Source: a virus
Virus record (IMG/VR): IMGVR_UViG_3300037493_003528
Coordinates: 14,811-78,810 of that record
Reading direction: 5' to 3' (one strand)
DNA: 64,000 nt
In this document: positions 4,513-62,066 of the stretch, one piece after another
Layout of the letters: each line of letters starts with the position of its first letter
How positions within the stretch are numbered: position 1 is the first letter of the stretch
Program-made: the position numbers and the translations under genes
The notes under the pieces: generated by a model
The model's database searches: none
The model's input: only the letters and a program-made list of their open reading frames with translations
What the model was told of the DNA's origin: nothing

Positions 4513-4612
4513 TTTATGAAATTAAGGGATTACGTAAAAGAGATAGGAAATTCGTTCCGAACCATAGTAGTAAGAAATGGTTATATTGAGGCAAGATTAT
4601 AATGGTGGAGCG

Positions 4613-4625
4613 ACGAATAATTCGT
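4613..4625. promoter_or_regulatory. palindromic operator-like site ACGAATAATTCGT
   Basis: Same palindrome as 2806/56806 in opposite orientation, upstream of terminase. Confidence 0.55.
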
Positions 4626-4670
4626 GAAAGCCGTGGAAATGGTAAGATACTCTAAATGGAGTAACGAATA

Positions 4671-6197
4671 ATGCTACAAACAACAGAAATTAGCAGCATA
4701 GGAGAATTGGTAAAAAGCATATCTATACAGGTAAGTGGAACTAGTCAGTTTAGTAAGTTCCAAAGAATGTATAAGAATGATCGAATAGCATTCGTGCATG
4801 ATATTATGCCTAGATTAGGAAAAAGCATAACACCTTATCAGGAGGAGATATTAGGTTACTTTGATGAGGGAGAAAAGAGAGTAGCTGTAAGAGGACCACA
4901 CGGTTTGGGAAAGACTTTCTTAGCGAGTATTATCGTGCATCATGGTTTACTTACCAGTGAGGAGGATTGCAAGATTCCCTGTACAGCTAGTGCATTTAGG
5001 CAGTTGGAAAAGTATTTGTTTCCTGAGATCAAAAAGAGCTCAACGTTTATAGCGTGGCCTGCTGTAGGAAGGCAACCTTATACGAGTTCTGGTGGAGGAA
5101 ATTGTGAAATGCATCAAATGTCCATCAAGCTATCTGATGGCATGGTAGAAGCGTTTGCTGTAGCAAGCGATAACTATGCGTATATCGAGGGTGCTCATGC
5201 ACGACGACTAATATATGTGTTTGATGAGGCAAAGACTATTCCAGATGGCATGTGGGATGCTGCTGAAGGAGCATTCTCCACAGAAGGCATAGCATCAGAC
5301 AACAAAGAAGACTACGCAAATGATAGTGAATGCTATGCATTTGCTATCAGCACTCCTGGTGCTCCATCAGGACGATTCTATGATATACATATGCATAAGG
5401 AAGGCTATGAGGACTGGAGAGTAAGGCACGTTACTCTCGATGAAGCTATTAATGCTGGTCGCATAGGAAAAGACTGGGCAGAGCGTAGACTTAAGCAGTG
5501 GGGAGAAACGTCTAGTACGTACCAGAACAGAGTCCTAGGAGAGTTTGCAGACATGTCAGAGGAAGGAGTTATACCTTTATCTCATATAAACATGGCAGTG
5601 GCTCGCTGGAAGGCTTGGGACGTGTCTGGACGACCTGTTTTAAAGGGTAGGAGAAGTATAGGAGTAGACGTGGCTAGGATGGGTGAAGACAACACCGTAC
5701 TGGCGTGCAGGGAGGCATCCACCGTCACAAACGTCCATACTTTTACAAAACTTCCGACCACGGCAGTTGCAGGACATGTCAAGCATTATTCGTCAGGTAG
5801 AATTATTAATATAGAAATGGATGGTGGACTTGGTGCAGCTGTATATGATATGCTCCACGAAGAAGGTGTGCCAATGCTTAAACCTATAATAGTAAATGGC
5901 AAGACGCTTAAGCGAGATAAGTCTGGAGAGTTAAAGTTTGCTAACGTGCGTGCTGCTATGTGGTGGAATATGCGTGAACTACTGGATCCAGTAAATGGAG
6001 AAGGTGTTATGCTTCCACCTATTATTAAGTTGATTGGAGACCTGTCCGCACCGAAGTGGGAGATAAAGAAAGATGCTACTGTGTTCTTGGAGGATAAGAA
6101 ATCCATACATGAGAGAATTGGTAGATCTACGGATTATGGAGATGCTGTGTGTCTGGCATTTTGGGAAAGCGGTGGCGGTGGAGGTGTGGTATTTTAG
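4671..6197 (+). CDS. terL: terminase large subunit
   Basis: Walker A VAVRGPHGLGKT, Walker B YVFDEAK, ISTPG, RNase H-like IGVDVARMGED and RSTDYGDA. Confidence 0.92.
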   Translation: MLQTTEISSIGELVKSISIQVSGTSQFSKFQRMYKNDRIAFVHDIMPRLGKSITPYQEEILGYFDEGEKRVAVRGPHGLGKTFLASIIVHHGLLTSEEDCKIPCTASAFRQLEKYLFPEIKKSSTFIAWPAVGRQPYTSSGGGNCEMHQMSIKLSDGMVEAFAVASDNYAYIEGAHARRLIYVFDEAKTIPDGMWDAAEGAFSTEGIASDNKEDYANDSECYAFAISTPGAPSGRFYDIHMHKEGYEDWRVRHVTLDEAINAGRIGKDWAERRLKQWGETSSTYQNRVLGEFADMSEEGVIPLSHINMAVARWKAWDVSGRPVLKGRRSIGVDVARMGEDNTVLACREASTVTNVHTFTKLPTTAVAGHVKHYSSGRIINIEMDGGLGAAVYDMLHEEGVPMLKPIIVNGKTLKRDKSGELKFANVRAAMWWNMRELLDPVNGEGVMLPPIIKLIGDLSAPKWEIKKDATVFLEDKKSIHERIGRSTDYGDAVCLAFWESGGGGGVVF

Positions 6198-6227
6198 AGC
6201 GTAAAGGAACTTTAGATAAGGTGACTT

Positions 6228-6671
6228 ATGAAGCTAATATTCAAATCGTTTCCTAATCCTGGACATGAAGGAATCCCTGGACATCAAGGTGGGAGCCTTC
6301 CACGTGGTGAATCATCAAATAAGAAGACATTTAGGCACGGAACAAGTATTGAAAGTGCCGATAAAATTAGAACTGAGGGAATACGTAGAAATAGTGCTAG
6401 TATAGGTGACAGAGCATCTTCAGTTTATTTTATGCAGGACAAAAGTGCTATTCGTGATTACGTCACAGACAAATACAACGAAAGTGATGAAGGATTTGCG
6501 ATTGTTGAATTTGATGTACCAGAGGAATTTACTGACTCCATTTTGGAGGATGAAGAAGAAGGTGACTCCTTCAGAATGGAGAAGGATGTTCCTACAGAAT
6601 GGATAAGAAATATTGAATACTATGATGCAAAAGGAAAATTCTCGAAGAGAATTGACATCACGAAAGTTTAG
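6228..6671 (+). CDS. leader-tagged ADP-ribosyltransferase-fold protein (HGT class)
   Basis: MKLIFKSFPNPGHEGIPGHQGGSLPR; FRHGT..IRTEGI..SVYF..IVEFDVP..VPTEWI. Confidence 0.65.
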   Translation: MKLIFKSFPNPGHEGIPGHQGGSLPRGESSNKKTFRHGTSIESADKIRTEGIRRNSASIGDRASSVYFMQDKSAIRDYVTDKYNESDEGFAIVEFDVPEEFTDSILEDEEEGDSFRMEKDVPTEWIRNIEYYDAKGKFSKRIDITKV

Positions 6672-6673
6672 TA
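6663..6673 (+). promoter_or_regulatory. promoter-like motif variant AAAGTTTAGTA
   Basis: Overlaps the TAG stop of 6228..6671. Confidence 0.5.
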
Positions 6674-6690
6674 TTGGTGAGGGTATATTT

Positions 6691-6774
6691 ATGTGGATAG
6701 ATGTTATGTTCGAGATCGCGATTGTTATTCTGGCATTCCTGGGAATCGTGATCATAAACAAGAGGAAGAAATGA
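6691..6774 (+). CDS. 27-aa single-pass membrane peptide, not in ORF track
   Basis: MWIDVMFEIAIVILAFLGIVIINKRKK*; GAGG upstream; ATGA overlap with next gene. Confidence 0.55.
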   Translation: MWIDVMFEIAIVILAFLGIVIINKRKK

Positions 6775-7631
6775 GAATAGTGTTCAAGTCGTTTCCTGAC
6801 CATAAAGGTATTCCTGGACATCAGGGAGGGTCAGTAGCACGTGGTGAAGATTCTAGTATTAATACTGTTTTTAGTAAATTTTCTTATGCTGATTATACAA
6901 AATCCAGTGATAAATCGTCTTTTATTAAGAATAACGTTAATAAAATATTTTCTGTCCTAGGAATAAAATCGAATGTTGAGATTGTCGATGACAAAAAGTT
7001 CAGTGAGATATTTCACGATATTAAGGTATCTGCTGGCGCCACAATATTAGATGTTCATGCAGGATATCATGCTAAAAATAACATTGTGTATTTGAGACAG
7101 AGCAGGTTGGATGCTGTTAAAAGTAAGAGTGATTACAGATTATACAAAAATGTTATCTATCATGAAATAGGACATGCTTATCATGCTGATATTCTGGGAA
7201 TAAAAGTGCAGGATAAGGGTGAATATGGCTCAGGGTGGTGTGAGGACTTTGCAGATGATTTTGGAAATTGGATAGGATATTCAGAACGGTTGCATAATGT
7301 TTATACTGGAATATCCGTACCTATTAATTCTAGGGAACTTGCTAAAGCCACTGATTACAATTTACAGAGTTCTTTTGATGAGATGTTAAAGAGACACGAG
7401 AGAACAAAACAATTTGTTGGCAGATTTCCTTGTGCCAGGAGGTGTAAAATGAAGAAGATACTAAGAAAGACAACAGATAAAACAACAGTGACAGAATTTG
7501 TGCCAGAAAATGAGAAAGACGTAAAGTTATTATCAGAGTTGGTTATAACTGGTAAAATACCTATAGACGTGGCTCACAAAAGAAAATACAAAAATGTTGT
7601 GAAGTGGAATAAAAATGAAATTAATATTTAA
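6771..7631 (+). CDS. leader-tagged zincin metallopeptidase-like protein (start revised to 6771)
   Basis: MRIVFKSFPDHKGIPGHQGGSVAR; YHEIGHAYH..CEDFA (HExxH..E). Confidence 0.7.
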   Translation: MRIVFKSFPDHKGIPGHQGGSVARGEDSSINTVFSKFSYADYTKSSDKSSFIKNNVNKIFSVLGIKSNVEIVDDKKFSEIFHDIKVSAGATILDVHAGYHAKNNIVYLRQSRLDAVKSKSDYRLYKNVIYHEIGHAYHADILGIKVQDKGEYGSGWCEDFADDFGNWIGYSERLHNVYTGISVPINSRELAKATDYNLQSSFDEMLKRHERTKQFVGRFPCARRCKMKKILRKTTDKTTVTEFVPENEKDVKLLSELVITGKIPIDVAHKRKYKNVVKWNKNEINI

Positions 7632-47821: not shown

Positions 47822-50145
47822 GCACCATATCACCTGCAGAACTTGTAACTCTTAGGACAAAACATCCTCACAGTGGGAAGTTTTATTTATCAATTTTATC
47901 TCCTACCGTTGTGTATTGTGGGAAGATATCTATTGCTATTGTTAGAGGTGCAACACAAATAACGTTATCCAACATTAGTGGTGATATTGCAAATGTTGTT
48001 GAAGGTAATACAATTTATGTTGGTATGGCGTGTGGGGATTATAGTGTTTCTATCAGACGATACAGGTCCAGAGTTGGAAATGTTATTACAGTAGACGAAA
48101 ATTCTGTGGTGTGGGATGTTTCTCACTACATAACAATTCTTGATAATCATGAAGTATTCCCAATATATCCCTTTATTTCTGATACTACACCATTTGTTTT
48201 TTACAAGGATAAGGACATAGTTTATTCAGATCAGAATACATATCCTCCTCCAGTTGCAATAGCTGGTGCTCCAAAGGTTGGTTTTCTGACTGCTGGTATG
48301 ATAACGTTCGACTTGGATGCAAGTGATAGTTATGTAATTGCTAGTGGTGCCACAATTACAACATATCACTGGGAGTGCTCCAGTGGTAGTATAGCAAATA
48401 GTAACATTGCTGTTACAACTATTTCATTTACTGTTGCAGGGCAATATTGGTTAAAGTTAACAGTAACTGATTCCAATAATAAGTCGCAAATAACTTATAG
48501 ACGTATTTATGTGCATGAGAGAAGTGGTGTAAATGCTCCATGCCTTGATTTTGAGATTACATCTAATCCTAATGGCTCTTACGATTCTGGTTGGAGTATG
48601 AGGGTGAAGTTACTGAAGGGAGCAGAACTAACAAATATATCAGATGGTACTCAGGTAGTTTTGTGGTATGAATCTTACTACGATGGTGTTGAACAGTATA
48701 TTGGTGATGCTGGTAATGTTAGGTTGGTTGGATACATAAGATCTGAGACAGTTAATAGGCAATTATCGTTGGGATATGTTGAGTTTGAGGTTGCTACGAT
48801 AGATGCTGTTTTGGATGCTTGTAATATGTTTAGTATATCGCTCGAAGAAAATGCTATAGTTGATACATGGTATAAATTTCCAACCACAACATTAACGGTT
48901 GCTAGGGCAATACACCATTTGTGGAAATGGCATAGCACTTTGTTTGAAGTATGCGATGTGTTTTTACCAGTAATAAATACCAACACAATGTCTGCATGTG
49001 ATGATATGGAGAATGGAACGTTATTAACTCTTACGAGTTGGGCATATTCTAATGGTATTTATGCTAAGACATGTTGTGACAAACTTGGTAGAATGCACGT
49101 GGAAGAGGATTTGTTACTGGTGTCATTGACAAGACAAGCTGCAGTTCCTGTGGTTTTGGATATATTAGCAGTGGATAGACGTGGTGAATCAGATGTTCAG
49201 TATGTTAGGAATGGTGAAGCTAAGACAGCATCTGTTTTGGCATCAGGAGTTGCTTATATTGGAGGATTGTATACTCCAATAATGTCTTTAGCTCCAGGGA
49301 ATGTTCCAAACAATAGAGGGAAGAATACTGTAGTTGCGGAACGGTTGTGTTTAGCAACTCAGGCACAATTGAATGAGTTGTGTGGTAGATTGTTATCAAT
49401 GGAGAATAGGGAGTTTATAGAGATACGTTTGTCATTTGCTGGTAACTATCCAGTTGATGTAATAGCTCAGGAATGGTTTACTATTACATTACCAACTGAT
49501 GCTCGTGGTGTTACATTTGATAATATCAGAATGGTATGTAGGTCAGTCACCGATGTAATAGATATGATGAATGGAACGGTATATTCAGAATGCTCATTTG
49601 AGTTGATGGTAAAAAGCGTTTCTGGTACAACTGAACCAATAGTAGATCCAATAGATGAACCACCAGCACCACCAGTAGTTTATCCAGAAACACCGTTACC
49701 ACCATATGACCCACCACCACCTTATTACCCACCTTATTACCCACCTTATACACCACCTTATACACCACCTGGATCTGGCAATTTGTTTGGATTTAGCACG
49801 TACATTGGTTTTAGTAATGCAGTACTGTCATTGGGTATTCAAGGATATACAGAAATACCGTTCAATTGTGTTATTTACAAGTGGGTACTATTATCTGCCA
49901 TAACTGGCAGTGTGGTTGTGGATATTTGGAAAGTGCCATACATATCTTTTCCACCAACAAGTTTAAATTCCATAACTGGGTCCGCTAAACCAACGTTACT
50001 TAATGCATATAAATCTTATGGTAGTGGAACATTACTGGTTGGATGGAATAAAACATTACTGAAGGGTGACATTTTGGGATTTAGTGTTATAAGTGTTTCG
50101 TTAGTTAAAAGAGTTACTTTGAGTATAACTGGGACACGATTATAA
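47818..50145 (+). CDS. tail tip/hub protein with PKD-like domain and Pro-Tyr linker
   Basis: PPVAIAG..FDLDASDS..YHW..LTVTDS; PPYY/PPYT 12-bp repeats near 49720-49770. Confidence 0.6.
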   Translation: MSTISPAELVTLRTKHPHSGKFYLSILSPTVVYCGKISIAIVRGATQITLSNISGDIANVVEGNTIYVGMACGDYSVSIRRYRSRVGNVITVDENSVVWDVSHYITILDNHEVFPIYPFISDTTPFVFYKDKDIVYSDQNTYPPPVAIAGAPKVGFLTAGMITFDLDASDSYVIASGATITTYHWECSSGSIANSNIAVTTISFTVAGQYWLKLTVTDSNNKSQITYRRIYVHERSGVNAPCLDFEITSNPNGSYDSGWSMRVKLLKGAELTNISDGTQVVLWYESYYDGVEQYIGDAGNVRLVGYIRSETVNRQLSLGYVEFEVATIDAVLDACNMFSISLEENAIVDTWYKFPTTTLTVARAIHHLWKWHSTLFEVCDVFLPVINTNTMSACDDMENGTLLTLTSWAYSNGIYAKTCCDKLGRMHVEEDLLLVSLTRQAAVPVVLDILAVDRRGESDVQYVRNGEAKTASVLASGVAYIGGLYTPIMSLAPGNVPNNRGKNTVVAERLCLATQAQLNELCGRLLSMENREFIEIRLSFAGNYPVDVIAQEWFTITLPTDARGVTFDNIRMVCRSVTDVIDMMNGTVYSECSFELMVKSVSGTTEPIVDPIDEPPAPPVVYPETPLPPYDPPPPYYPPYYPPYTPPYTPPGSGNLFGFSTYIGFSNAVLSLGIQGYTEIPFNCVIYKWVLLSAITGSVVVDIWKVPYISFPPTSLNSITGSAKPTLLNAYKSYGSGTLLVGWNKTLLKGDILGFSVISVSLVKRVTLSITGTRL

Positions 50146-51294
50146 ATGGCAGCAACCATTGTATGGACCAGATGTTATCCTACAGGTGATGAAAGTTACA
50201 ATGCTGTTGCGTATTCGTTTTGTATGACTAGTGGTGATTTCAGATATGTTAGTGTTTTATGTCTGTATATGGTTGGTGGTGTATTAAGTGGTGGTCTATA
50301 TTTTTCAAATGATTATGGTAAAACATATATATTAAAGTTTCCAATTGTGACTGGCATGGATGGAATAGTTACGATGGTATATATATTTGGCATGAGTCAT
50401 TCTGGTCAATATATGCTCGCAATTAATGTAGTTAATTCAGGGTATGGTACAAAAAATATTATAGTATCACGAGATTTTGGAGTTACTTGGTCTGATGTTG
50501 ATATAACTTGTAATGTTGGATTATTAGTACCCTGCTCCAGTAAATGTATTAGTGATGATGGTTCTATTATGCTTATTGGGGTTCGTCCGATAAGTCAGTT
50601 TGAAGTTATAGGTTCGAGTCCTAATTTATATATATCAAAAAATTTTGGAGTTACATGGACTCCAAATTATCCAGAATTATCAACTGCAAATATAAATGCT
50701 CATGTGGGAACTCCGAGTTGTAATGGTTCAGGAACTGTTTTAATGTGTGGATTATATTTGAGTTATTATGATAATCGTAATGTTAATTGGTTGTTGAGAT
50801 CAGATGATTTAGGAACAACTTGGCAAAGATGTGATACTGGTACTGATATACCAATATATGCACTGCAATATATGCAGGGCATTGGTATATCTGATGGTGG
50901 TACTAGAATGGTTGCAGCAATACACGATTTATTTCAGTGTCCGACGTATCTAGTTAGATATTCTGATTGTAATTGGAGTTGGAGGGATTCACAACAATCA
51001 TACTATGATTATGCATGTTGTGATGGACTTGGTAATATGTATTTCCGTACCTCACATGGTATTTATAGTGGTGGACACGGATTAATTTTTTCCAGTAATT
51101 GGGGTGCTAGTACCAGCATAGAATTTGGGAGAGCTGTGTATAGTGCATGTATTGATAAAGCAGGTGAAAATGCCTGTGCTGCAGTAATGGCTGGAGCACA
51201 TGGTGATTATGCCATAGACGATGTTGATGATGATGCTGCATTTTATTTGGGTGTGATAGTCAAGGATACAGCTTATACAATTTGGTGGAATTGA
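50146..51294 (+). CDS. BNR/Asp-box beta-propeller protein (putative receptor binding)
   Basis: SNDYGKT, SRDFGVTW, SKNFGVTW, SDDLGTTW. Confidence 0.7.
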   Translation: MAATIVWTRCYPTGDESYNAVAYSFCMTSGDFRYVSVLCLYMVGGVLSGGLYFSNDYGKTYILKFPIVTGMDGIVTMVYIFGMSHSGQYMLAINVVNSGYGTKNIIVSRDFGVTWSDVDITCNVGLLVPCSSKCISDDGSIMLIGVRPISQFEVIGSSPNLYISKNFGVTWTPNYPELSTANINAHVGTPSCNGSGTVLMCGLYLSYYDNRNVNWLLRSDDLGTTWQRCDTGTDIPIYALQYMQGIGISDGGTRMVAAIHDLFQCPTYLVRYSDCNWSWRDSQQSYYDYACCDGLGNMYFRTSHGIYSGGHGLIFSSNWGASTSIEFGRAVYSACIDKAGENACAAVMAGAHGDYAIDDVDDDAAFYLGVIVKDTAYTIWWN

Positions 51295-51296
51295 TA

Positions 51297-52130
51297 ATGA
51301 ATAATGATATTAAAGATTTAATAATAGCACGAATTAACCGTGATTCTGTAAAACAGGATGGTATTGCAACAGTAAAGGGTATAACTGTTGGTGTGGATTT
51401 ATCTAATAGTTGCGAAGTAACAGGTCGTCCTGGTTTTGTTTGGGTAAAGGAAAATTCGCAGGATGGTGCAGTATTTCAGGCATTTAACACGACGATAAAG
51501 ACATTGGTAGGATTGCCAGTAATAGTTTCCAGGGGTGCAAATAAGGTTTATCGAAGAGTCATTACTGGCATTGATTGGGATGTTATACCTGGAACGTCTT
51601 ATGTTGGTGAACCATATACTGTTCTAAATCACAACGAGACACATGAATGGCAGGACACATTACCAGGAATTGATGCAGTAAACGTTTATCCACGATCTAT
51701 AGCACCAATGAGAGTTTATCCAGGTTCTGGTGTTACTATAAGTGTTTCTAGAGGTATTTACATATATAATAGAGTTGTGTATGATTTTGTAGGTGAGGTA
51801 TCATATAACCTTCTTTCATATGTACCACCATCAGGTTATAATGTTGGAATATTTATATATTTAGATTTTGTTACTGGTACATTACAATCAGTTGTTGGGA
51901 CACCTATTCTTATTGCAGTTGGTGAGCCTGTATATCCAACAATTCTTAATGGTGTGTTCCCATTGTGTTATGTAAAATTGTTTGATACAACTACTTACAT
52001 TTCTGAGATCAATATTATTAGGGATCTTAGACCATTGTATTCTTTCGAAACAGGTATGGATAGTAATGTGGCTATTTTAGCTGCAGAGTTGGACATGGAA
52101 ATTTCTAGACATAAAGTAGAAGGCTTGTAG
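51297..52130 (+). CDS. putative tail/baseplate protein
   Basis: Position; start revised to ATG 51297. Confidence 0.5.
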   Translation: MNNDIKDLIIARINRDSVKQDGIATVKGITVGVDLSNSCEVTGRPGFVWVKENSQDGAVFQAFNTTIKTLVGLPVIVSRGANKVYRRVITGIDWDVIPGTSYVGEPYTVLNHNETHEWQDTLPGIDAVNVYPRSIAPMRVYPGSGVTISVSRGIYIYNRVVYDFVGEVSYNLLSYVPPSGYNVGIFIYLDFVTGTLQSVVGTPILIAVGEPVYPTILNGVFPLCYVKLFDTTTYISEINIIRDLRPLYSFETGMDSNVAILAAELDMEISRHKVEGL

Positions 52131-52138
52131 GAGGTATT

Positions 52139-52627
52139 ATGAGTTACGGAAATACAGTTAAAGATGGTAGTGGTAGTTTTTATCATAATTTATGTGATGT
52201 TAATGGTCGTCTTATTGTATCAAGGTTTGATACATTTGTTGTATCTGATGTAACTGCAGATGATAGCGATAAAAGTTTTACAGTACCTGCGAATTACATT
52301 TATATTATTTATGGTATAAGAGTTACACTTACTACAACTGCTTCTGCTGGTAATCGCAATATGGCTGTAACAATCACTGATGGTACCAATGTCCTATGTG
52401 AAGTTAGAGCAGGAATAGTTCAGACTGCATCGTTGGCACGATATTATACATTTTCACAGGACGTACCAGAACTAACAGCATATAGGGATACTGATTATTT
52501 ATCAACACTTATACCCAGTTTTCCATTACCTGTTGGGTATGTTGTCAGAGTGTATGATAGAAAAGCAATTGATGTTGCTGCAGATGATATGTTGGTTCAC
52601 ATCACATTTGGGAGAATGCAAGTTTAG
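52139..52627 (+). CDS. putative small structural protein
   Basis: AGGAGGT RBS, beta-rich. Confidence 0.55.
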   Translation: MSYGNTVKDGSGSFYHNLCDVNGRLIVSRFDTFVVSDVTADDSDKSFTVPANYIYIIYGIRVTLTTTASAGNRNMAVTITDGTNVLCEVRAGIVQTASLARYYTFSQDVPELTAYRDTDYLSTLIPSFPLPVGYVVRVYDRKAIDVAADDMLVHITFGRMQV

Positions 52628-52629
52628 TA
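52619..52629 (+). promoter_or_regulatory. promoter-like motif CAAGTTTAGTA
   Basis: Overlaps TAG stop; directly upstream of the long hairpin. Confidence 0.6.
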
Positions 52630-52639
52630 GTGTAGGATG

Positions 52640-52733
52640 AATAATTATCTACAGTCTGGGTGAATGCCGTTGCCTCCTAAGGTTGTGCCGACCTAGATTC
52701 ACAGGGTATTCACTCAGACTATAGGTAATTATT
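52640..52733 (+). ncRNA. candidate structured RNA: 29-bp stem with 36-nt antisense loop
   Basis: 52640-52668 pairs with 52705-52733 (3 G-U, 1 mismatch on + strand); loop complementary to 56862-56894. Confidence 0.6.
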
Positions 52734-52739
52734 ATTTAC

Positions 52740-54089
52740 ATGAAAATAATCGTTAATGACATAAGTTGCAGTGTTGAAGATCCAATGGTTTTGCCTATAG
52801 TTAGGGAACTGTGTAGAGCTAAACCAAATGGATACAGATTTATGAGACGTTATAAATCTGGTAGATGGGATGGTTATGTGAGTTTGATGACAAGTTTTAG
52901 ATCTTTTCCAACAGGTTTGTTGAAATTAGTTAAAGAATGTTTAGAGGGAAGGGATTACAAGGTTGAGTTGGAAGATCATAGGAAATTCTTGGTTAGTAGA
53001 TCAGTTACTCCCGATTGTTTGTCTGGTGTTATATTGAGGGATTATCAGATAGAAGCTGCAAATGTTCTTATATCAAAAACACGTGGCGTTGCAAAAATGG
53101 CAACCAATGCAGGTAAGACAGAGGTCATGGCTGCAATGCTTTGGGGACTAGATTTTCCGCAATCACTGATATTGGTTCACAGGAAGGAACTCATGTATCA
53201 GACTGCGGAAAGGTTTGCTGAGAGGTTGGGTGTTAGAATAGGAATAATTGGGGATGGTAAGTTTGACAAGAGGGACATAACGGTTGCCATGATACAGACA
53301 ATATCCAATAAGTTTTGTGCAAAGGATTGGATAGATAATCAGGTTATTATGGTTGATGAGTGTCATCACATGTCTAGTAATCAACTCATGAATTTTTTGG
53401 TGAAGATACAAGGTAGTTATCGATATGGATTTTCTGGTACTCCTCTGAAACGTGAAAATTTATCTGATATGAAATTGGTATCCGCTACTAGTGATATTGA
53501 ATATGATATATCAAATAAGTTTCTGATAACTGAGGGATATTCAGCAGTGCCAATTGTTCACATTTACACTGTTGGATCTAAATCTAAAGATAATTGGAAG
53601 ATGGAATACCAACCTGCATATGATGAGTTTATTGTGAATAGTTCTGAGCGCAACAAAATCATTGCTAAAGTTGCTAAGGAATCAGTGGGTGTTACTCTGA
53701 TATTGGTTAATCGTATTCAGCATGGAGAGATTATTACTAGTCTTGTTCCTGGCTCTGTTATGATCGATGGCTCTGATAGTACGGATGTTAGGAGAGCAGT
53801 TTTGGATATGATGCGTTTGGAAAATACATCAGGTGTTTTTATTTCCAGTCCTATATTAGATGAAGGAGTCAATGTTCCCGAGATGAATGCTGTAATACTG
53901 GCTGGTGGTGGGAAGAGTCACATAAAGTTATTACAGCGGATAGGAAGAGGGATGCGTAAGAAGGGTGGTGATAATGTGTTGCACGTGTATGATTTTGTAG
54001 ATCGTGCCAATAAGCATTTGTTCAGTCATTCAGAAGAAAGAATTGGTACTTACATTGATGAAGGATTCAATCAGTTATTTGTCAATTAA
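52740..54089 (+). CDS. SF2 DEXH helicase (UvsW/XPB-like)
   Basis: LRDYQ, ATNAGKT, VDECHH, SGTP, DEGVNVP, QRIGRGMR. Confidence 0.9.
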   Translation: MKIIVNDISCSVEDPMVLPIVRELCRAKPNGYRFMRRYKSGRWDGYVSLMTSFRSFPTGLLKLVKECLEGRDYKVELEDHRKFLVSRSVTPDCLSGVILRDYQIEAANVLISKTRGVAKMATNAGKTEVMAAMLWGLDFPQSLILVHRKELMYQTAERFAERLGVRIGIIGDGKFDKRDITVAMIQTISNKFCAKDWIDNQVIMVDECHHMSSNQLMNFLVKIQGSYRYGFSGTPLKRENLSDMKLVSATSDIEYDISNKFLITEGYSAVPIVHIYTVGSKSKDNWKMEYQPAYDEFIVNSSERNKIIAKVAKESVGVTLILVNRIQHGEIITSLVPGSVMIDGSDSTDVRRAVLDMMRLENTSGVFISSPILDEGVNVPEMNAVILAGGGKSHIKLLQRIGRGMRKKGGDNVLHVYDFVDRANKHLFSHSEERIGTYIDEGFNQLFVN

Positions 54090-54633
54090 ACCAAACCTTG
54101 CCGTATTGTTCGAGAAGGCACAATACGAGATCCTTTGCGTAAGGTTTTACATAGTCAGTTCTAAGTGGTCAATCTTTTCAGTATTTGCAGATGATCTTAG
54201 GGAAAAGCAAATTGATGAGAAGAGTTATACATACACAATCGTTCAGTTGCTTAAGAGTTGGTTGGTAACTAAGAAATTCAAATCAATCCCAATAAATGTG
54301 TTTTGTGGTGATTGGGCACTGAATAGATATCTTAAGGTTTGTAACAGTGAAACGGTTACAATACATAAAGATGATAACTCAGATGAATTATTATATTCTG
54401 AGATGATGGTAGCAAAATATTATATATCCAAAAACTTGGATGGGGTGTTCAAGTATAAGGATGCAGTTACTGAACTGGAAAAGCTGTTGAGTGTAGCATG
54501 GTTGCGTTTGTATGAGGAAAACTTGATTACAGACAAGTTTAGGTATATTGCCGTTGATAGATTGGCAGAGGAATATGGTGTTGGGTTTTGTAAAAGTTAT
54601 AATGATATTATAGGTAAATTGTTATGCAATTAG
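54058..54633 (+). CDS. hypothetical protein in replication module
   Basis: ORF between helicases; start uncertain. Confidence 0.55.
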   Translation: MKDSISYLSIKPNLAVLFEKAQYEILCVRFYIVSSKWSIFSVFADDLREKQIDEKSYTYTIVQLLKSWLVTKKFKSIPINVFCGDWALNRYLKVCNSETVTIHKDDNSDELLYSEMMVAKYYISKNLDGVFKYKDAVTELEKLLSVAWLRLYEENLITDKFRYIAVDRLAEEYGVGFCKSYNDIIGKLLCN

Positions 54634-55898
54634 ATGATAAGTATCCATTCAATAGAGCATTCAGGTTAAAGATTTTATCCTTAATGTTGGATAAATTCTG
54701 GGTGACTCAGTATGGTATAGATCTTATTCAGCCTGAGTATTTCGAGTCGGATGATGAAGAGGAGATGTGTCGAGCGTTGATAGCTTATTGGGAGCATTAC
54801 AAAACTGTTCCTTCAGATCCTGAAGACATTATAGTTATGTCAGGTTCTGAAAATTCCCAATTTGTGTATGAGATTTTCGATTGTGATGAGGATATAAGGG
54901 TGGCATCTGATAAGGCTATTGAGTGGGCAAGAGAACAGAGCATGAAACTTGCCATTTTGGAATCTGTAGAATGTATCAAGAATAAGGATACTAAAAACAT
55001 CATACCTTTAGTGAAGAAAGCGTTGATGGTTGGTGATAATTTATTATCTCCAGGGATTGATGTTATTGCGGATACTGAACGGTGGTTGTATGATATCTTT
55101 GTTAATAAGGTTCGCACAGGCTGGACGCACGTTGATAGGATTCTTGGTGGTGGTCTTAGTGCTGGAGAACTGGGGATAATTTTAGCTCCTCCTAATCGTG
55201 GTAAATCTATGGGATTAATAAATATTGGATACGGTGCTGCAGGTATTGGCAGTGGTAAGAATGTTGCGCACTTTACGCACGAGATGCATCAGGGAATTGT
55301 TGCTAAGAGATATGCAGCACGTTTGACATTCAGATTCCCAAACAAGGATGAAAATATTGAACGGTATGAAGATGATCTCATAAAATCTGCCATGAAATTG
55401 ATGCCAGGAAAAGTGCGAGTTATTCATCAATCTAAAATGACTGTAGATGATATGGATAATCGATTAGAGAGGATGTCGGCAGAAGGCTTCAACCTTGGAT
55501 TAATAGTAGACGATTACGCAGATCTTATGGTTCCCACAAAAAGATATACTGAAAAGCGTTATGAATTATCATCTATATATGAGGATTTGCGAGCGTTGGG
55601 TGATAAGTGGGGTGTTCCTGTTTGGAGCGCATCACAATCTAATAGAGCATCGTTATCCAAAGAGTTAATCACAATGGCAGATATAGCAGAAGATATTGGG
55701 AAGGCAGCAATTTCTGATGTTATTGTTGCAATGTGTCAAACAAGGGATGAGAGGTTGGTTGATCAGTGCCGATTGTTTATGGCAAAGGTAAGAGATGGAG
55801 AAAATTTAGCATTGTTCGATGCCAAATATTATTCTAGGTCTCAGACAATTATTACTACTGGTGCAACTGCACCAAAGGATAATGATCAGGATGTTTGA
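54624..55898 (+). CDS. DnaB-like replicative helicase
   Basis: APPNRGKS, IVDDYADL, WSASQSNR, KVRDG. Confidence 0.9.
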   Translation: MQLDDKYPFNRAFRLKILSLMLDKFWVTQYGIDLIQPEYFESDDEEEMCRALIAYWEHYKTVPSDPEDIIVMSGSENSQFVYEIFDCDEDIRVASDKAIEWAREQSMKLAILESVECIKNKDTKNIIPLVKKALMVGDNLLSPGIDVIADTERWLYDIFVNKVRTGWTHVDRILGGGLSAGELGIILAPPNRGKSMGLINIGYGAAGIGSGKNVAHFTHEMHQGIVAKRYAARLTFRFPNKDENIERYEDDLIKSAMKLMPGKVRVIHQSKMTVDDMDNRLERMSAEGFNLGLIVDDYADLMVPTKRYTEKRYELSSIYEDLRALGDKWGVPVWSASQSNRASLSKELITMADIAEDIGKAAISDVIVAMCQTRDERLVDQCRLFMAKVRDGENLALFDAKYYSRSQTIITTGATAPKDNDQDV

Positions 55899-56781
55899 TA
55901 TATCAGATTTTATGTATAGAAATTTTGATGTGCATGAAACTGATAATGATTTGCACGTATGTTGTCCTTTCTGTGATTTTGATGATAAATATCATTTGTC
56001 GGTTTGTAAGAAAAAACACGTTAGTCACTGTTACAAATGTGGTTATAAGGCATCTTGGATAACTTTGGTCATGAATGTTCTACATTGCTCATATATTGTG
56101 GCAATGTCTGAACTTTATGTCAAACCAACCTTAAATAATGGTCATTCTAAGCGTGTTATTGATGATAAAGGTATAAATTCATCGTTAGGATTGCAAAGCC
56201 TGCCATCCGACTTCAAAAGTTTATACAATGGACGTACTGGAGAATTTGCTAGAAAATATCTTGAGAAACGTGGATTTTTTAGTGAAATATGGAAGAAATA
56301 TAATCTTGGAGTATGTGAAAGTACACATCCATATAGGGTTGTCATACCAATAGAAGATGGTTACTATCAGGCTCGTGCTACATTGAAATGGATGGATCCA
56401 AAATACATTAATCCAAAATCAAATGCGAGAAATTATTTGTTCAATTCTGTTGCGTTGGATAATTACGATGAAGTTGTAATATGTGAGGGAGCATTTTCTG
56501 CCATGGCTGTTGGTGATAATGCAATTGCATTAATAGGAAAAGAGCCTGTTAGGGAAAAGATAGAGCGTTTGGTTAATTCAACTGTTGGAACGTTTTGTGT
56601 TGCACTTGACCATGGAGCTGGCTATTGGTCAATGAAATTATCTGAGGCACTTAGTAGGGCAGGGAAGATGGTTATTGTATGGGATTTTTTGGATGATCGT
56701 GATCCTGCCGATGGTGGGGAGTATAAAGAATATAATTACGATTTGAGGAATAAAGTATTTTTGATGATGAAGCAAGTTTAG
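55891..56781 (+). CDS. DNA primase (zinc finger + TOPRIM)
   Basis: CPFC..HCYKC, KYINP, ICEGAFSA, ALD, DPAD. Confidence 0.85.
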   Translation: MFDISDFMYRNFDVHETDNDLHVCCPFCDFDDKYHLSVCKKKHVSHCYKCGYKASWITLVMNVLHCSYIVAMSELYVKPTLNNGHSKRVIDDKGINSSLGLQSLPSDFKSLYNGRTGEFARKYLEKRGFFSEIWKKYNLGVCESTHPYRVVIPIEDGYYQARATLKWMDPKYINPKSNARNYLFNSVALDNYDEVVICEGAFSAMAVGDNAIALIGKEPVREKIERLVNSTVGTFCVALDHGAGYWSMKLSEALSRAGKMVIVWDFLDDRDPADGGEYKEYNYDLRNKVFLMMKQV

Positions 56782-56783
56782 TA
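56773..56783 (+). promoter_or_regulatory. promoter-like motif CAAGTTTAGTA
   Basis: Overlaps TAG stop of primase. Confidence 0.6.
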
Positions 56784-56805
56784 TATATAGAAACAAGGAA
56801 ATCCA

Positions 56806-56818
56806 ACGAATTATTCGT
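56806..56818. promoter_or_regulatory. palindromic operator-like site ACGAATTATTCGT
   Basis: Just upstream of a sigma70-like -35 box. Confidence 0.6.
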
Positions 56819-56827
56819 GCGAAACTC

Positions 56828-56856
56828 TTTACTTTTCAATGAAAATGAAGTATAAT
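56828..56856 (+). promoter_or_regulatory. sigma70-like promoter
   Basis: TTTACT-N17-TATAAT upstream of UvrD-like gene. Confidence 0.6.
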
Positions 56857-56897
56857 GAAGTTAGGTCGGCACACTTATTATCTTATGGAGGCAATAG

Positions 56898-58523
56898 ATG
56901 AATAAAATTTTATGTCCTGAATGTGGCAAGGCATTGGTGAAACGTGAGCGTCGATCGGATGGAAAACCTTTTTGGGGGTGCTCAGGTTTTCCCATTTGTA
57001 GGAAGATAGTAAACTGGACAAGCGATACTCAGGAAGTAGAAAAGAAAGTAGTCTTCGTAAAAGAGGATGTTTTCCTGCCATCTGAATATCAGGTTGCTAT
57101 TTATGATTGGGTCAAGTCTCACATGGCAGATGGTGGTGGGAAACGTGCCTTGGTTGTGAAGGCTCTTGCTGGTTCTGGTAAGACCACCACTGGTGTGAAG
57201 ATGCTGTCATTCCTGTCGAAGGATTTGGATATCATCTACCTAGCATTCAATAATCGGATAGCAGAACATATGCGGACAAAGTTACCTGATTATGTGAATT
57301 GCAAGACGTACCATGCACTTGGATTTGCTGCAATTCGTGGATTTGAGAAGAATGTTACCGTCGATAAAGATAAGGTTAATAAGATAATAGACCGTTTCTT
57401 GGATCCATATTCCCAGAGAAGTTTATACAGTCCCATACAGCAAATTGTAAGTTTGGTCAAGGCAAATTTAACGTCTACTTCTGTAGAAGATTTGCAGTTC
57501 ATTGTAGATCGTTACGGTATAGAATTGAATGGCGATGCGGATATGATTTTCGGTGTGATTCCCAGTATCATAGAACAGTGCAAGGCTATGACCAACATCA
57601 TCGATTTTGATGATATGTGCTGGTTACCAGTAGTTTTGGATCTTCCCATGAAGAAATTCAATTTCATATTTGTCGATGAAGCGCAAGATACTAACAAAGT
57701 ACAGATAGCGTTAGCTCTTATGAGTATGGATGAGGAATCACGGATCGTGGCGGTGGGTGACGAATATCAGTCAATCTATGGATTTCGTGGTGCCGACGTT
57801 GATGCGATTCCTAATCTTATCCAACATTTTGATGCGGATGTTTTACCACTATCGGTAACCTACCGCTGTCCCAGGAGTCACGTCTTGCAGATTAACAGAT
57901 TGTTCCCTGATATTGGTCTTGAGTTTGCTCCTGATGCTAAGGACGGTATTATCAGGAATATCACTAAGGCAGATTTTATCAAGGAAGTTAAACCTGCTGA
58001 TATGGTGCTGTGCAGAACCAATGCACCGTTAGTTCCTCATGCCTTCTCGCTGATACGTGATGGATTGAAGGCAGTCATTTTGGGACGTGATATCGGAACA
58101 GGGTTGATAACTATGATCCGCAAGACGGTCAAGAAGCAGAGGATAAGCAACATTAACGAATTAATTGTTGCATTAACTGAGTACTCTAGTCGTGAATCTC
58201 AGAAATTGTCAGATCAGAACAAAAATGCACAGGCTCAGGCTCTACAAGATAAGACTGAGACAATCTTTGCCTTATGCGATGGGATTGATACTATAGATGA
58301 ATTGGAAGGGAAAATAAATTCAATTTTCTCTGATGACGTAGAAGGTGTGGTTTTCTCGTCAGTTCATAAGGCAAAAGGTTTGGAAGCAGAGAGAGTTTAT
58401 ATTCTGCATTCCGAGCTGATGCCTCATCCTATGGCAAAGTCATCTTGGGAAGTTCAACAGGAAAATAATATAAAGTATGTGGCTTATACACGATCACTGA
58501 GTGAATTAATTTTTGTTGGTTAA
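56898..58523 (+). CDS. UvrD/Rep-like SF1 helicase with N-terminal topoisomerase-type zinc ribbon
   Basis: CPECG..FWGCSGFPIC; ALAGSGKT, VDEAQD, GDEYQSIYGFRGA, HKAKGLE, YVAYTR. Confidence 0.9.
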   Translation: MNKILCPECGKALVKRERRSDGKPFWGCSGFPICRKIVNWTSDTQEVEKKVVFVKEDVFLPSEYQVAIYDWVKSHMADGGGKRALVVKALAGSGKTTTGVKMLSFLSKDLDIIYLAFNNRIAEHMRTKLPDYVNCKTYHALGFAAIRGFEKNVTVDKDKVNKIIDRFLDPYSQRSLYSPIQQIVSLVKANLTSTSVEDLQFIVDRYGIELNGDADMIFGVIPSIIEQCKAMTNIIDFDDMCWLPVVLDLPMKKFNFIFVDEAQDTNKVQIALALMSMDEESRIVAVGDEYQSIYGFRGADVDAIPNLIQHFDADVLPLSVTYRCPRSHVLQINRLFPDIGLEFAPDAKDGIIRNITKADFIKEVKPADMVLCRTNAPLVPHAFSLIRDGLKAVILGRDIGTGLITMIRKTVKKQRISNINELIVALTEYSSRESQKLSDQNKNAQAQALQDKTETIFALCDGIDTIDELEGKINSIFSDDVEGVVFSSVHKAKGLEAERVYILHSELMPHPMAKSSWEVQQENNIKYVAYTRSLSELIFVG

Positions 58524-58534
58524 CAAGTTTAGTA
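58524..58534 (+). promoter_or_regulatory. promoter-like motif CAAGTTTAGTA
   Basis: Upstream of 58569. Confidence 0.6.
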
Positions 58535-58568
58535 TAATTGGCACAATAATTTATTTATGGAGGCAATA

Positions 58569-59141
58569 ATGGAAGCGACACTTCAGGAATCTATTCAGAG
58601 TTTGGATATGGAAAAGTTTGTGTATTACCTAGCGCATAAGAACTCCTCGGATGTTATTGGAATGGAGTTCGATGATGTGGTCAGTGAGTTGAATGAGGAA
58701 TTGATTAAAGGTTTAGCGTACTATTCACCGAAGAATTTGCCGATGGAACAAATGAGAGCTCTGATGAGAAGGATGCTTGATAATAGGATAAGTGAGTTGA
58801 AATATAAGTATTTTGTAACGTACAGGAAGAATTACCTGAATGCTACATCTATAGAAACAGATATTTTATCAACCAAACTAAGAGCAAGAAATGATCCAGT
58901 TTCTATCATAGAATCCAATGACAGGGTATTTAGTGTCAGGAGTAAGTTGTCTGGTGATGCTGTAACGGTGTTCGATTATGTAATTCTTGGTGACGGTTTG
59001 GTTGATATGAAATTCACAGATTGTACTAAGAAGTTACATTATGCACAATTAGCTATTGTGTTGGGAATGTCTGATAGGATTGTTAAGATGGCATTGGTTG
59101 AGATAAAAGAAACGTACTCGGAGGTACTAGATGAAAATTAA
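58569..59141 (+). CDS. sigma-factor-like / HTH transcription protein (start revised to 58569)
   Basis: GGAGG RBS; FDDVVSEL, C-terminal YAQLAIVLGMSDRIVK HTH-like. Confidence 0.5.
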   Translation: MEATLQESIQSLDMEKFVYYLAHKNSSDVIGMEFDDVVSELNEELIKGLAYYSPKNLPMEQMRALMRRMLDNRISELKYKYFVTYRKNYLNATSIETDILSTKLRARNDPVSIIESNDRVFSVRSKLSGDAVTVFDYVILGDGLVDMKFTDCTKKLHYAQLAIVLGMSDRIVKMALVEIKETYSEVLDEN

Positions 59142-59631
59142 TGATGATCTAATAAGAGATCTATATTCAGATTTTACTAAGGAAGAAGTTTTTGAGGTAG
59201 CTAAGGAAGTGGGGGTGGATTATGTACTGGGTGATAGGGTGAAGGTTCTACTTAAAGCAATTCTCACTAAGATTATAGAAGATAAACCGAAAACTGGAAA
59301 ATTGTCAAATGTAACATTTGAGTTCCTGGTTGCAGCAGAAGTCATTGATGACATTGATGGGAAATATATTTATTTAGATAAGCCTGATATTTACATATTT
59401 GGTGATGATACTGTTGTTGTTGATGAGGGAGAGAAGGTTCCTGCATGTTTTGGATGCGCTGATGCGAAAGATCCATCATGTTCGAAATGCAAAGTTTTTG
59501 ATAATTGTGTTATTGCAAGAGTTGCTAATCGTCCTCCATGTTTCGGAGAAGCATACTTTGCTAATAGCAACGAATGTATATTGTGTATAGAGGCACTTAA
59601 TTGTAATGCTGTAATACTTAGTAAAAAGTAA
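59131..59631 (+). CDS. Cys-rich hypothetical protein
   Basis: Two PxCFG...CxxC...C units. Confidence 0.6.
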   Translation: MKINDDLIRDLYSDFTKEEVFEVAKEVGVDYVLGDRVKVLLKAILTKIIEDKPKTGKLSNVTFEFLVAAEVIDDIDGKYIYLDKPDIYIFGDDTVVVDEGEKVPACFGCADAKDPSCSKCKVFDNCVIARVANRPPCFGEAYFANSNECILCIEALNCNAVILSKK

Positions 59632-59641
59632 AGGAGTTAAT

Positions 59642-60310
59642 ATGAAAAGGCACATTATTAATCGTGGTACTGTAAGGAAAGTAGATCATGAGTCTGAGCC
59701 TGAGGAAGTAGTTGAGGAAGTAGTTGAGGCAGAATCTTTGTATAATCAGACTGAAGAAGAAGAAGTTGATGATAATGATGAATCCTTCAATCTTGCAGCG
59801 GTTTTGCGCAAGAAGTTATCAAAGAAAGAGCCTAGGACAAAGACTGTTTCATCGATTATTGATAAGGATGGTGTTCTCATAGAGCATGAAGAGCCTGTTC
59901 TGCGTAAGAAAGGTTCTAGTCCTATAATTGATATTTTGGATTACATGAAGGTTGGCACTGTCCTGATGGTTTTGCGTGAGGATAGGGATTCCTGGAAAGT
60001 TACAGTAACAGATGATAAGTTTTCTGGGATAATTCATCCGATAGCTATGGGAACCAAATTGTCTGGTAAAGCGTTTTGGGATACTGTTGCGAGTCCTGAT
60101 TACCTAAAATGGAGTCGTGAGTGGAGTAACCTTACCATGGCTGAAAAGAAGAGCCGTGCTATAAAGCTAGGTGTAACTTGGGAAAAGAATGCTAATCCAA
60201 AGATTGAAGCAATGCTTCTGACTGCAGCAGTTCGGGAACATTTGGGAATTTCCAAATACAAACCTGAATATGCAACCAGAGGGTCACGTTCCAATATTCG
60301 TGCTCATTAA
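59642..60310 (+). CDS. hypothetical protein
   Basis: AAGGAG RBS; acidic N-terminal, basic C-terminal. Confidence 0.6.
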   Translation: MKRHIINRGTVRKVDHESEPEEVVEEVVEAESLYNQTEEEEVDDNDESFNLAAVLRKKLSKKEPRTKTVSSIIDKDGVLIEHEEPVLRKKGSSPIIDILDYMKVGTVLMVLREDRDSWKVTVTDDKFSGIIHPIAMGTKLSGKAFWDTVASPDYLKWSREWSNLTMAEKKSRAIKLGVTWEKNANPKIEAMLLTAAVREHLGISKYKPEYATRGSRSNIRAH

Positions 60311-60319
60311 GGAGTTATT

Positions 60320-61405
60320 ATGCGTAAACAGATAAATGTTGCTATTATTGGAGTTGGAAATTGTGCATCTTCATTGGTGCAGGGTGTTGAATTTTATATG
60401 AATGTTCATGATACAGATGATAGAATCCCTGGACTTATGCATAACGTATTGGGTGGGTACGCTGTAGGTGATATAAAATTCGTTGCTGCAATTGATGTTG
60501 TATCCACTAAGGTTGGTTTTGATCTATCACAGGCTATATGGTCTTATCCTAACAACACTATAAAGTTTGCAGATGTACCAATGTTGGGTGTGAATGTTGA
60601 ACGTGGTATGGTGCATGATGGATTAGGTAAGTACCTATCCAAAATAGTCACAAAATCAGATCATCAGACTGTTGACATTGTTAGATTATTAAAAGACACA
60701 AATACAGATGTTGTTGTTAACTTTCTACCTGTTGGATCTGAAGAAGCTACAAAGTGGTATGTGGAACAGGTATTAACAGCTGGGTGTGCGTTTGTCAATG
60801 CTATACCTGTGTTTATTGCCAGTCAGCCATATTGGCAAGAGAGATTTAGGGAGGCTGGTCTTCCAGTTCTTGGAGATGATGTTAAGAGTCAGGTAGGTGC
60901 TACTATTACGCATCGTGTTTTGACTAGTCTGTTCGTGGATCGTGGTGTAAGGTTGGATCATACATACCAACTAAATTTTGGTGGTAATACCGATTTTATG
61001 AATATGTTAGAACGTGAGCGTTTGGAATCTAAGAAGATATCTAAAACAGGTGCAGTTACGAGTATGTTACCATATGCCATGAATCCAAATGATGTTCACG
61101 TTGGTCCTAGTGATTATGTTCCGTGGTTATCTGATAGAAAGTTCTGCTATATTCAGATGGAGGGTACGACGTTTGGAAATGTTCCTTTGAAGTGTGAAGT
61201 GAAACTTGAAGTATGGGACAGTCCCAACTCTGCAGGTGTAATAATTGACGCAATTCGTTGCGCTAAACTTGCCTTGGATAGAAGGTTGGTAGGAGAGATA
61301 GCGTTACCTTCTTCATACTTTTTCAAGACTCCCCCAATTCAGTTTAATGATGATGAATGCAAAAAATTCACGGAAGAGTTCATAGATGGCAGTAGAAACT
61401 ACTAA
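60320..61405 (+). CDS. ino1: myo-inositol-1-phosphate synthase
   Basis: [52 protein letters not shown]. Confidence 0.95.
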
Positions 61406-62066
61406 TTTATATATGCACAAGACTGGTGCATGGTTGCGTAGGGATACGCACGATAAATACGTTATACGGCAAATAAATCAATATAGATCATTGAACATAA
61501 TTCCTGGTTGTAGAGTATTGGATATAGGTGGTCATATTGGTTTATTTGCTAGATATGCTATTGACTGCGGTGCATTACACGTTCTTAGCATAGAACCACA
61601 CCCAGGGAATTGTGATGTATTTGAACTAAATGTTAAAAATTATCCAGATGTGGAATTGATAGAAGCAGCAGTTGTACCTAGAAGTTGTAATGAATCTGAA
61701 ATAAATTTTTATGAGAGTACCACTGATACAAGTGCGCACTCAATTGTTCCAATTCGTGGTCGTAATGTTTTTACAGTAGATACCATTAAGTTTGAGAAAG
61801 TTTTATGTGAGGAAGTAAATTCTAAGTCTGTTGTCATTAAAATTGACATAGAAGGTGGTGAGTTTGGATTATTTCAGGAAATTATAGAATTATTTCCACT
61901 GTATAAAGTATGGTCATTTGCCATAGAATTTCATTTTGGAAAGCCTGGATCTAGGGAATTGACTAGGGAATTTATAAGGAAATTAGATTTGTTATATACT
62001 GCAACAAGAATTGCAAATGTTACGGATAAGGCTTGGAATGCCACAGGAGTTTGGAATGGGACATAG
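61386..62066 (+). CDS. FkbM-family methyltransferase
   Basis: [22 protein letters not shown]. Confidence 0.85.

Follow-up and report, generated by a model that had tools for sequence, protein, structure and literature searches.

The c4 antisense RNA of phages P1 and P7 carries loops that pair around the ribosome binding site (RBS) of a downstream gene and block its translation (Citron and Schuster 1990, in PMC12197685). The hairpin described here resembles c4 (Rfam RF01695) in that it is a phage element on the same strand as its targets and upstream of them, with a loop complementary to a downstream RBS, and in that its specificity shifts between related phages through matched changes in RNA and target. 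A small stable RNA that is cut from a longer transcript, c4 is encoded in the immunity region of temperate phages, where it controls the antirepressor (icd/ant). The present element, in contrast, lies in the predicted mRNA leader of a replication helicase, its phage has terminal repeats, and its targets are a UvrD-like and a sigma-like gene. The two share no sequence or structure homology, and an Rfam cmscan of positions 52400-52900 with all families and E values up to 10 returned only chance rows of miRNA and snoRNA type and no c4. The hairpin thus probably works like c4 without being a member of its family.

RoxS of Bacillus subtilis represents the sRNAs with C-rich loops that are found in low-GC bacteria (PMC10433868). 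In the C-rich or UCCC-loop sRNAs (RNAIII and RsaE of S. aureus, RoxS of B. subtilis), as in our element, an unpaired CCUCC loop on a stable stem is available for pairing with Shine-Dalgarno (SD) sequences. Those sRNAs, however, are free-standing host genes with their own terminators and many targets, whereas this element is a leader whose complementarity to two phage mRNAs is extended (up to 12 + 13 nt) and specific for these targets. The RNase III processing hairpins of phage early mRNAs, such as the R sites of T7 and those of SP82, are likewise long, near-perfect intercistronic stems beside an RBS. The T7 and SP82 processing sites are known RNase III substrates, and none of them is known to have a loop antisense to another gene. 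A further small phage antisense RNA is the sar RNA of P22 (PMC12197685). Both sar and the CI RNA of P4 act on ribosome-binding or leader regions, as proposed for the present element, but sar is made from the opposite strand, as a true cis-antisense RNA, and is not a helicase-leader hairpin. The P4 CI RNA causes termination and is not a helicase-leader hairpin either. Our literature search found no paper describing such a helicase-leader anti-RBS hairpin; the PAK_P3 sRNAs, considered as known anti-RBS RNAs, were ruled out by the paper that describes them.

The hairpin upstream of the UvsW-like helicase gene

The DNA analysed (the window, 64 kb) comprises bases 14811-78810 of the 78.8-kb IMG/VR record of an uncultured sediment phage, and the ends of the record are direct terminal repeats. 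A megablast search of positions 52000-54000 against GenBank phages gave zero matches, that is, no close public relative, and the replication proteins of SPO1-like phages are only ~35-37% identical to those of this phage. All genes around the hairpin are on the + strand. They comprise, in this order, a 162-aa gene (52139-52627, function not assigned) directly 5′ of the hairpin locus; the UvsW-like SF2 DNA helicase gene whose predicted mRNA leader contains the hairpin (52740-54089; Pfam UvsW_N, ResIII and Helicase_C; phrog_16); a 209-aa gene; genes for a DnaB-like helicase and a primase; a UvrD-like SF1 helicase gene with an N-terminal Zn-ribbon (56898-58523; Pfam UvrD-helicase, UvrD_C and Zn_ribbon_Top1); and a sigma-factor-like gene of 190-194 aa (ORF listed as 58557-59141, with a likely start at 58569, 5 nt past the SD). 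Neighbours and targets of the hairpin are helicase, DnaB, primase and sigma-like genes. Assembled contigs from two freshwater-sediment metatranscriptome libraries of one study, which give neither strand, ends nor level and were not counted as proof of transcription, match positions 49000-62000 at 99-100% identity. The two runs contain 72% and 52% of the words sampled from 52100-59200, against 9% and 7% in DNA runs of the same samples; in one metatranscriptome run, the bin containing the hairpin is thinly covered by contigs.

Folding and an inverted-repeat search delimited a long stem, with its 5′ arm at 52640-52668 and its 3′ arm at 52705-52733 (+ strand), around an apical loop of 36 nt (52669-52704) defined by sequence and duplex scans. 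The arms are the top inverted repeat of the whole window (29 nt, 86% Watson-Crick, 36-nt spacer). Counted by hand, the 29 positions hold 25 Watson-Crick pairs, three G-U pairs and one C-A, so that 28 of 29 are paired in the + strand RNA compared to 26 of 29 in the - strand RNA. The minimum free energy of the + strand RNA is -49.6 kcal/mol (z -7.06), a value that none of 200 shuffles equalled, and that of the - strand RNA is -36.2 kcal/mol (z -4.5). A preliminary description of this DNA had reported a 29-bp stem whose three G-U pairs favour the + strand RNA, located just 3′ of a short motif; fold energies, pair counts and the presence of CAAGTTTAGTA at 52619-52629 agree with it on all these points. 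Within the loop, an anti-SD block, GTTGCCTCC(TAAG), occupies 52669-52681, and a second block, TGTGCCGACCTA at 52684-52695, is antisense to the 5′ part of the UvrD leader. The mean probability of being unpaired is 0.62 for the anti-SD block and 0.25 for the whole leader.

Because the 3′ arm ends 6 nt 5′ of the helicase ATG, it overlaps the ribosome-binding region of the helicase gene. This ATG has no SD in the window phage, and the helicase initiation region itself shows no complementarity to the loop. The terminator scan called no intrinsic terminator at the hairpin, whose stem base is A-U rich. The corresponding hairpins of related phages have no U run 3′ of them, and a role as terminator of the upstream gene was rejected on this ground. 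A free-standing sRNA gene would have its own promoter and terminator; a promoter-like motif is present, but there is no terminator ahead of the helicase ATG. This, together with the position of the 3′ arm, indicates that the hairpin is a leader element and not a separate sRNA gene. From the suggestion of "a trans-acting sRNA or 5′ UTR element", we therefore retain the 5′ leader of the helicase mRNA and drop the stand-alone sRNA. Two further candidates were rejected. A minus-strand gene was ruled out because the complement of the loop, although it resembles an RBS, is followed by a start codon in none of the lineages. An invertible switch was discarded as well: the segment is 36 nt long, its inverted orientation yields no usable start, and no strand-change joint occurs at the hairpin among the RNA-library contigs.

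The motif CAAGTTTAGTA (52619-52629, + strand) contains the stop codon of the upstream 162-aa gene, and the stem starts 10 nt after it. The genome contains ten exact copies of its core, AAGTTTAGTA, every one of them on the + strand and at a gene boundary (window positions 2835, 6664, 10736, 27333, 35910, 52620, 56774 and 58525; genome positions 1165 and 5816). A TTG is located 9 nt upstream of six of the copies, and the next start codon is 0 to >100 nt away; the set has the appearance of a candidate promoter class for the sigma-like factor of the phage. The same motif is conserved upstream of the helicase gene in relatives. In three of them the helicase ATG lies exactly 4 nt past the motif, with no SD and no hairpin (L014:679-695; L026, before 146; L034, before 582), and their helicase mRNAs are probably leaderless. 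This 4-nt distance suggests that the motif is a promoter from which transcription starts ~5 nt downstream. In the window phage, such a rule would place the transcription start near 52634 and the beginning of the hairpin ~6 nt into the helicase mRNA, and the sigma-like mRNA would begin at (U)GGCACAA. One motif copy directly abuts the ATG of an SSB-like gene, which argues for caution in assigning start sites in this way.

Complementarity of the loop to two downstream leaders

The two leaders complementary to the loop lie 4.1 and 5.8 kb downstream of the hairpin, on the same strand. The leader of the UvrD-like gene (56862-56897) contains the 12-mer TAGGTCGGCACA at 56862-56873 and CTTATGGAGGCAAT at 56882-56895, the latter including the 8-mer GGAGGCAA (56887-56894) before the ATG at 56898. 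The complement of the loop matches it at 12 of 12 nt plus the SD block. The second target (58524-58568) consists of a promoter-like motif (58524-58534) and the leader of the sigma-like gene, with GGCACAA at 58540-58546 and, ahead of the ATG at 58569, the 8-mer GGAGGCAA (58559-58566). Both matches had been claimed in the preliminary description, and they are found at the positions given there. Its further proposal that a class of genes shares this leader did not hold, since the genome-wide search yields only two transcription units. The pattern GGCACA-N(0-30)-GGAGG has three matches compared to 0.4 expected and no others in the whole genome, and GGAGGCAA occurs exactly three times in 78.8 kb, at the two RBSs and, on the reverse strand, in the loop.

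When the loop was scanned for duplexes with every 46-nt segment of the genome on both strands (39,280 in total), the UvrD leader was the best partner (-46.2 kcal/mol, z -6.9; next, -38.1). With the cost of opening both partners included, the UvrD leader retained a net energy of -19.6 to -22.5 kcal/mol, and the sigma-like leader reached -6.6 kcal/mol, only a moderate pairing; 120 control initiation regions had a mean of +7.2 (sd 5.7) and a best value of -9.1. The complementary blocks are separated by 5 nt in the loop, compared to 13-17 nt in the targets. RNA pairing tolerates such a difference and a fixed protein-DNA site does not, so that the spacing favours pairing between RNAs. The mismatches between loop and targets show no preference for G-U (5 G-U versus 9 A-C), and the loop-target pairing itself thus lacks an RNA-specific signature. 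The whole promoter-plus-leader of the target is present in the loop as a colinear inverted copy, from which we infer that origin by inverted duplication contributes to the match. The central part of this inverted copy has diverged and the RBS complement has been retained. In one relative, L006, a distance of 13-14 nt separates TGATCCTCCTAG from TTGTCA in loop and target alike.

The UvrD-like unit has a sigma-70-like promoter candidate, TTTACT-17-TATAAT (56828-56856, 10/12 match), which stays a candidate only, as promoter-like matches around it are not above chance. The sigma-like gene sits behind the phage-type motif and not behind a host-type promoter, and the label "early" from the preliminary description is for this reason only tentative. 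A palindromic 14-mer, AACGAATTATTCGT, gives seven strand-matches in comparison with 0.36 expected (window copies at 2805-2818, 4612-4626 and 56805-56818), and the copy located 10 nt upstream of the -35 element of the UvrD-like promoter candidate has an operator-like look.

The 190-194-aa product of the second target has no Pfam, PHROG or PDB-sequence match. For an AlphaFold (AF2) model derived from four orthologues, with a mean pLDDT of 65, nearly all top Foldseek rows were sigma factors. The model aligned with sigma region 2 (8b3z_D) at Z 9.1 and an rmsd of 2.4 over 78 residues, and with sigma region 4 (2h27_D) at Z 8.9 and an rmsd of 2.6 over 67 residues; taken together, the test for sigma-70 regions 2 and 4 gave Z 8.9-9.1 and rmsd 2.3-2.6 on this model of mean pLDDT 65. 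The label "sigma-like" given on first inspection thus finds support at the level of the fold, and the protein is a probable phage sigma factor.

Conservation of the hairpin and co-variation with its targets

Searches with the helicase in IMG/VR and in JGI metagenomes provided many loci of relatives. The loop itself had no exact match in IMG/VR, and the IMG/VR pattern AAGTTTAGTA-N(38-66)-GTGCCGAC retrieved one relative, L002, plus chance matches only. At least six related phages retain the hairpin at the same syntenic spot, and their subclade keeps the order 162-aa gene, motif, hairpin and helicase. The subclade consists of L002, group A (L005, L007, L010, L027 and L043), group B (L006, L009 and L085) and group C (L008 and L033). 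The hairpins have a stem of 25-35 bp and a loop with CCUCC on its 5′ side, followed by a small second hairpin, on stems whose sequences are completely different between groups. Compensatory changes were found in 9 of the 37 pairs of group A, a number that 0 of 500 shuffles reached (slid controls, 0-3), and the anti-SD block is invariant in this group. Folding clearly favours the + strand in 9 of 12 leaders, and over 11 leaders G-U pairs outnumber 1x1 A-C mismatches by 47 to 12.

A plain alignment of nine leaders shows as invariant blocks the motif, ATCCTCCT, TTGTC and the small hairpin at the helicase start, and no part of the leader is more conserved than the anti-SD block. A covariance model built on group A finds groups B and C and, with filters off, scores the hairpin of the window at 20.1 bits on the + strand versus 14.6 on the - strand. 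MAFFT with RNAalifold across all three groups of relatives did not recover the long stems. Because the arms are too divergent to be aligned across groups, covariation was counted in one group only; the covariance-model alignment was left out, as it was contaminated by reverse-strand matches of the palindromic stem. A mini-hairpin, UGUCU-N6-AGACA, abuts the helicase AUG and encloses a weak SD (L005:3040-3060, and at the same place in L006, L007, L008, L010 and L043).

The reverse complement of the loop matches, in each phage of the subclade, the RBS together with its phage-specific flanks. These RBSs belong to the gene that comes first in the UvrD-like unit and to the orthologue of the 190-194-aa gene. 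The 17 kb of L006 contain CTAGGAGGAT three times, once at each of the two RBSs and once in the loop, and GGAGGATCA in L043 and GGAGGATC in L085 are likewise present three times, at two RBSs and in the loop. AACCAGGAGGA is shared with the UvrD-like gene in L005, where the second gene matches at 15 of 16 positions, and with the UvrD-like gene in L008; in L002, GGAGACAGAA is common to the loop and the first gene of the UvrD-like unit. The sequence mirrored in L020 is AGGAGGCTGAAAA, and its loop mirrors six genes; in this locus (L020:4568-7630) the RBS AGGAGGCTGAAA is common to six genes past the primase and is mirrored by the loop of the helicase leader.

Among the duplex partners of the loop over the whole locus, the two leaders took ranks one and two in L005 and ranks one and three in L043, and they shared the first rank in L006; the target leader of L002 was not among the best. 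The loop of the window phage pairs with its own UvrD leader at -42.9 and with the leaders of other phages at -13 to -25. In L002, L043 and L085 a small ORF of 76-124 aa has been inserted between the mirrored leader and the UvrD-like gene (L002:6281-6655, L043:12184-12411 and L085:5313-5636), and the mirrored leader stays on the first gene of the unit despite this insertion, indicating that the leader is what matters. The stop codon of the ORF inserted in L002 overlaps the start of UvrD. All in all, loop and targets change in step at the same two orthologous units, which is the loop-target covariation that had been named as a check.

More distant relatives lack this extended complementarity. 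Only a short 5′ hairpin with no anti-RBS is found in L012, L089, L018 and L041, and a comparison of the L012 loop with its own genes matched nothing beyond the SD core. The CCUCC loops of L011/L086 and L049 likewise match their own genes nowhere beyond the SD core. The module is thus confined to one subclade, and the lineages that have it are few and related. As judged from these sequences, the simplest history would be that a basal leader hairpin gained an antisense insert in one subclade.

Alternative readings and proposed role of the leader

We favour, at a probability of roughly 0.6, the reading that the hairpin is a leader-embedded antisense RNA that occludes the RBSs of two phage units. 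Several of the observations made above would also be compatible with an action in cis only, in which the 5′-proximal stem stabilises the helicase mRNA or is an RNase III site, and in either case gates the helicase ribosome-binding region held in the 3′ arm, and the similarity of the loop is a leftover of inverted duplication with no function in trans. Distant relatives do carry a 5′ hairpin after the same motif, with loops lacking an anti-RBS (L012, L089, L018 and L041), the 3′ arm does end 6 nt from an SD-less helicase ATG, and loop and inverted promoter-leader of the target are colinear. The stem, with 28 of its 29 pairs formed, is compatible with RNase III substrates, since it provides the near-perfect double-stranded RNA of about two helical turns or more on which they depend. 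As a 5′-terminal stabiliser, it would lie 10 nt past the motif on an mRNA whose start is taken only from the spacing in L014, L026 and L034. A neutral remnant, however, would not track lineage-specific RBS flanks among phages that share only 50-63% helicase identity and have rewritten stems; nor does it agree with an anti-SD block that is more conserved than any other part of the leader, or with an inverted copy that has diverged at its centre and kept its RBS complement. We consider an action restricted to cis unlikely.

A reading at the DNA level is a good deal less probable. Here the repeated blocks would be sites for a phage or host DNA-binding protein after three replication-module promoters, with one of the sites inverted, or else the hairpin would be a single-stranded DNA structure of an origin near the helicase and primase genes. 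Copies of the motif do lie just downstream of promoter-like motifs in every phage, the loop-target mismatches have no G-U bias, and GGTCGGCACA occurs three times in the genome compared to ~0.04 predicted from base composition (our own estimate). Its third copy (genome 6080-6089, outside the window) is inside a gp32-like SSB gene, ~250 nt into it (ORF 5826-6836), and may be due to chance or represent a further target or a DNA site. In addition, an unrelated IMG/VR phage contig (L179:3080-3540) has about ten copies of GGTCGGCACA/TGTGCCGACC within 400 nt, in both orientations and beside an AT-rich stretch. This array resembles iterons or operators and is made of the same 10-mer as the window loop and the UvrD leader; together with the copy in the SSB gene, it keeps the DNA-site reading alive for the GGTCGGCACA half of the complementarity. 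On the other hand, the shared block always includes a functional SD and extends to the start codon, the inverted copy is always in the apical loop of a covarying, G-U-rich stem that favours the + strand, the spacing of the blocks is unequal between loop and targets, and GTGCCGAC is not enriched over 281 kb of relatives. Even less probable, in our judgement, is that the pairing has another outcome, either because the target leaders titrate or open the helicase leader and raise helicase translation, or because pairing silences internal RBSs within a single polycistronic read-through RNA. Between 52740 and 59141 no terminator-like site is indeed predicted at a gene boundary, the single match being inside the UvrD-like ORF. 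In groups A-C, moreover, the TTGTCA of the second loop hairpin is complementary to TGACAA just upstream of the promoter-like motif of the targets, a sequence that would occur in read-through RNA only. Loop pairing alone, however, cannot melt a 29-bp stem, and both targets have promoter-like signals of their own.

For the leader-embedded antisense RNA, we propose the following course of events. The mRNA of the UvsW-like helicase would be transcribed from the + strand from the phage's own promoter of the CAAGTTTAGTA type, and its long stem would present the 36-nt antisense loop and protect the 5′ end. The loop may then pair with the 5′ part and the SD region of the UvrD-like and sigma-like mRNAs. 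The acting species could be the intact helicase mRNA or a stable 5′ fragment, for instance one produced by RNase III cleavage of the stem, and such a cut may both release a small hairpin RNA and free the helicase start region. Pairing would exclude 30S subunits from the two targets and lower the translation of the UvrD-like and sigma-like genes. If the sigma-like protein reads promoters of the CAAGTTTAGTA type, a negative feedback loop would result.

Few regulatory RNAs are known from virulent phages (PMC4933390), and few phage regulatory RNAs are known outside temperate immunity regions. The present case offers named target mRNAs, specified pairing nucleotides and natural compensatory variants in relatives. 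We raise, as a tentative extension, the possibility that in a family of uncultured phages the UvsW-helicase leader, transcribed from the phage-specific class of promoters, is both an mRNA and a riboregulator that feeds back on the translation of a sigma factor and a second helicase and has co-evolved with them across lineages. If the second target is a phage sigma factor, the element would tie RNA control to the transcription programme of the phage, and if the dual purpose of the leader is real, it would constitute an RNA-based timer of the replication programme.
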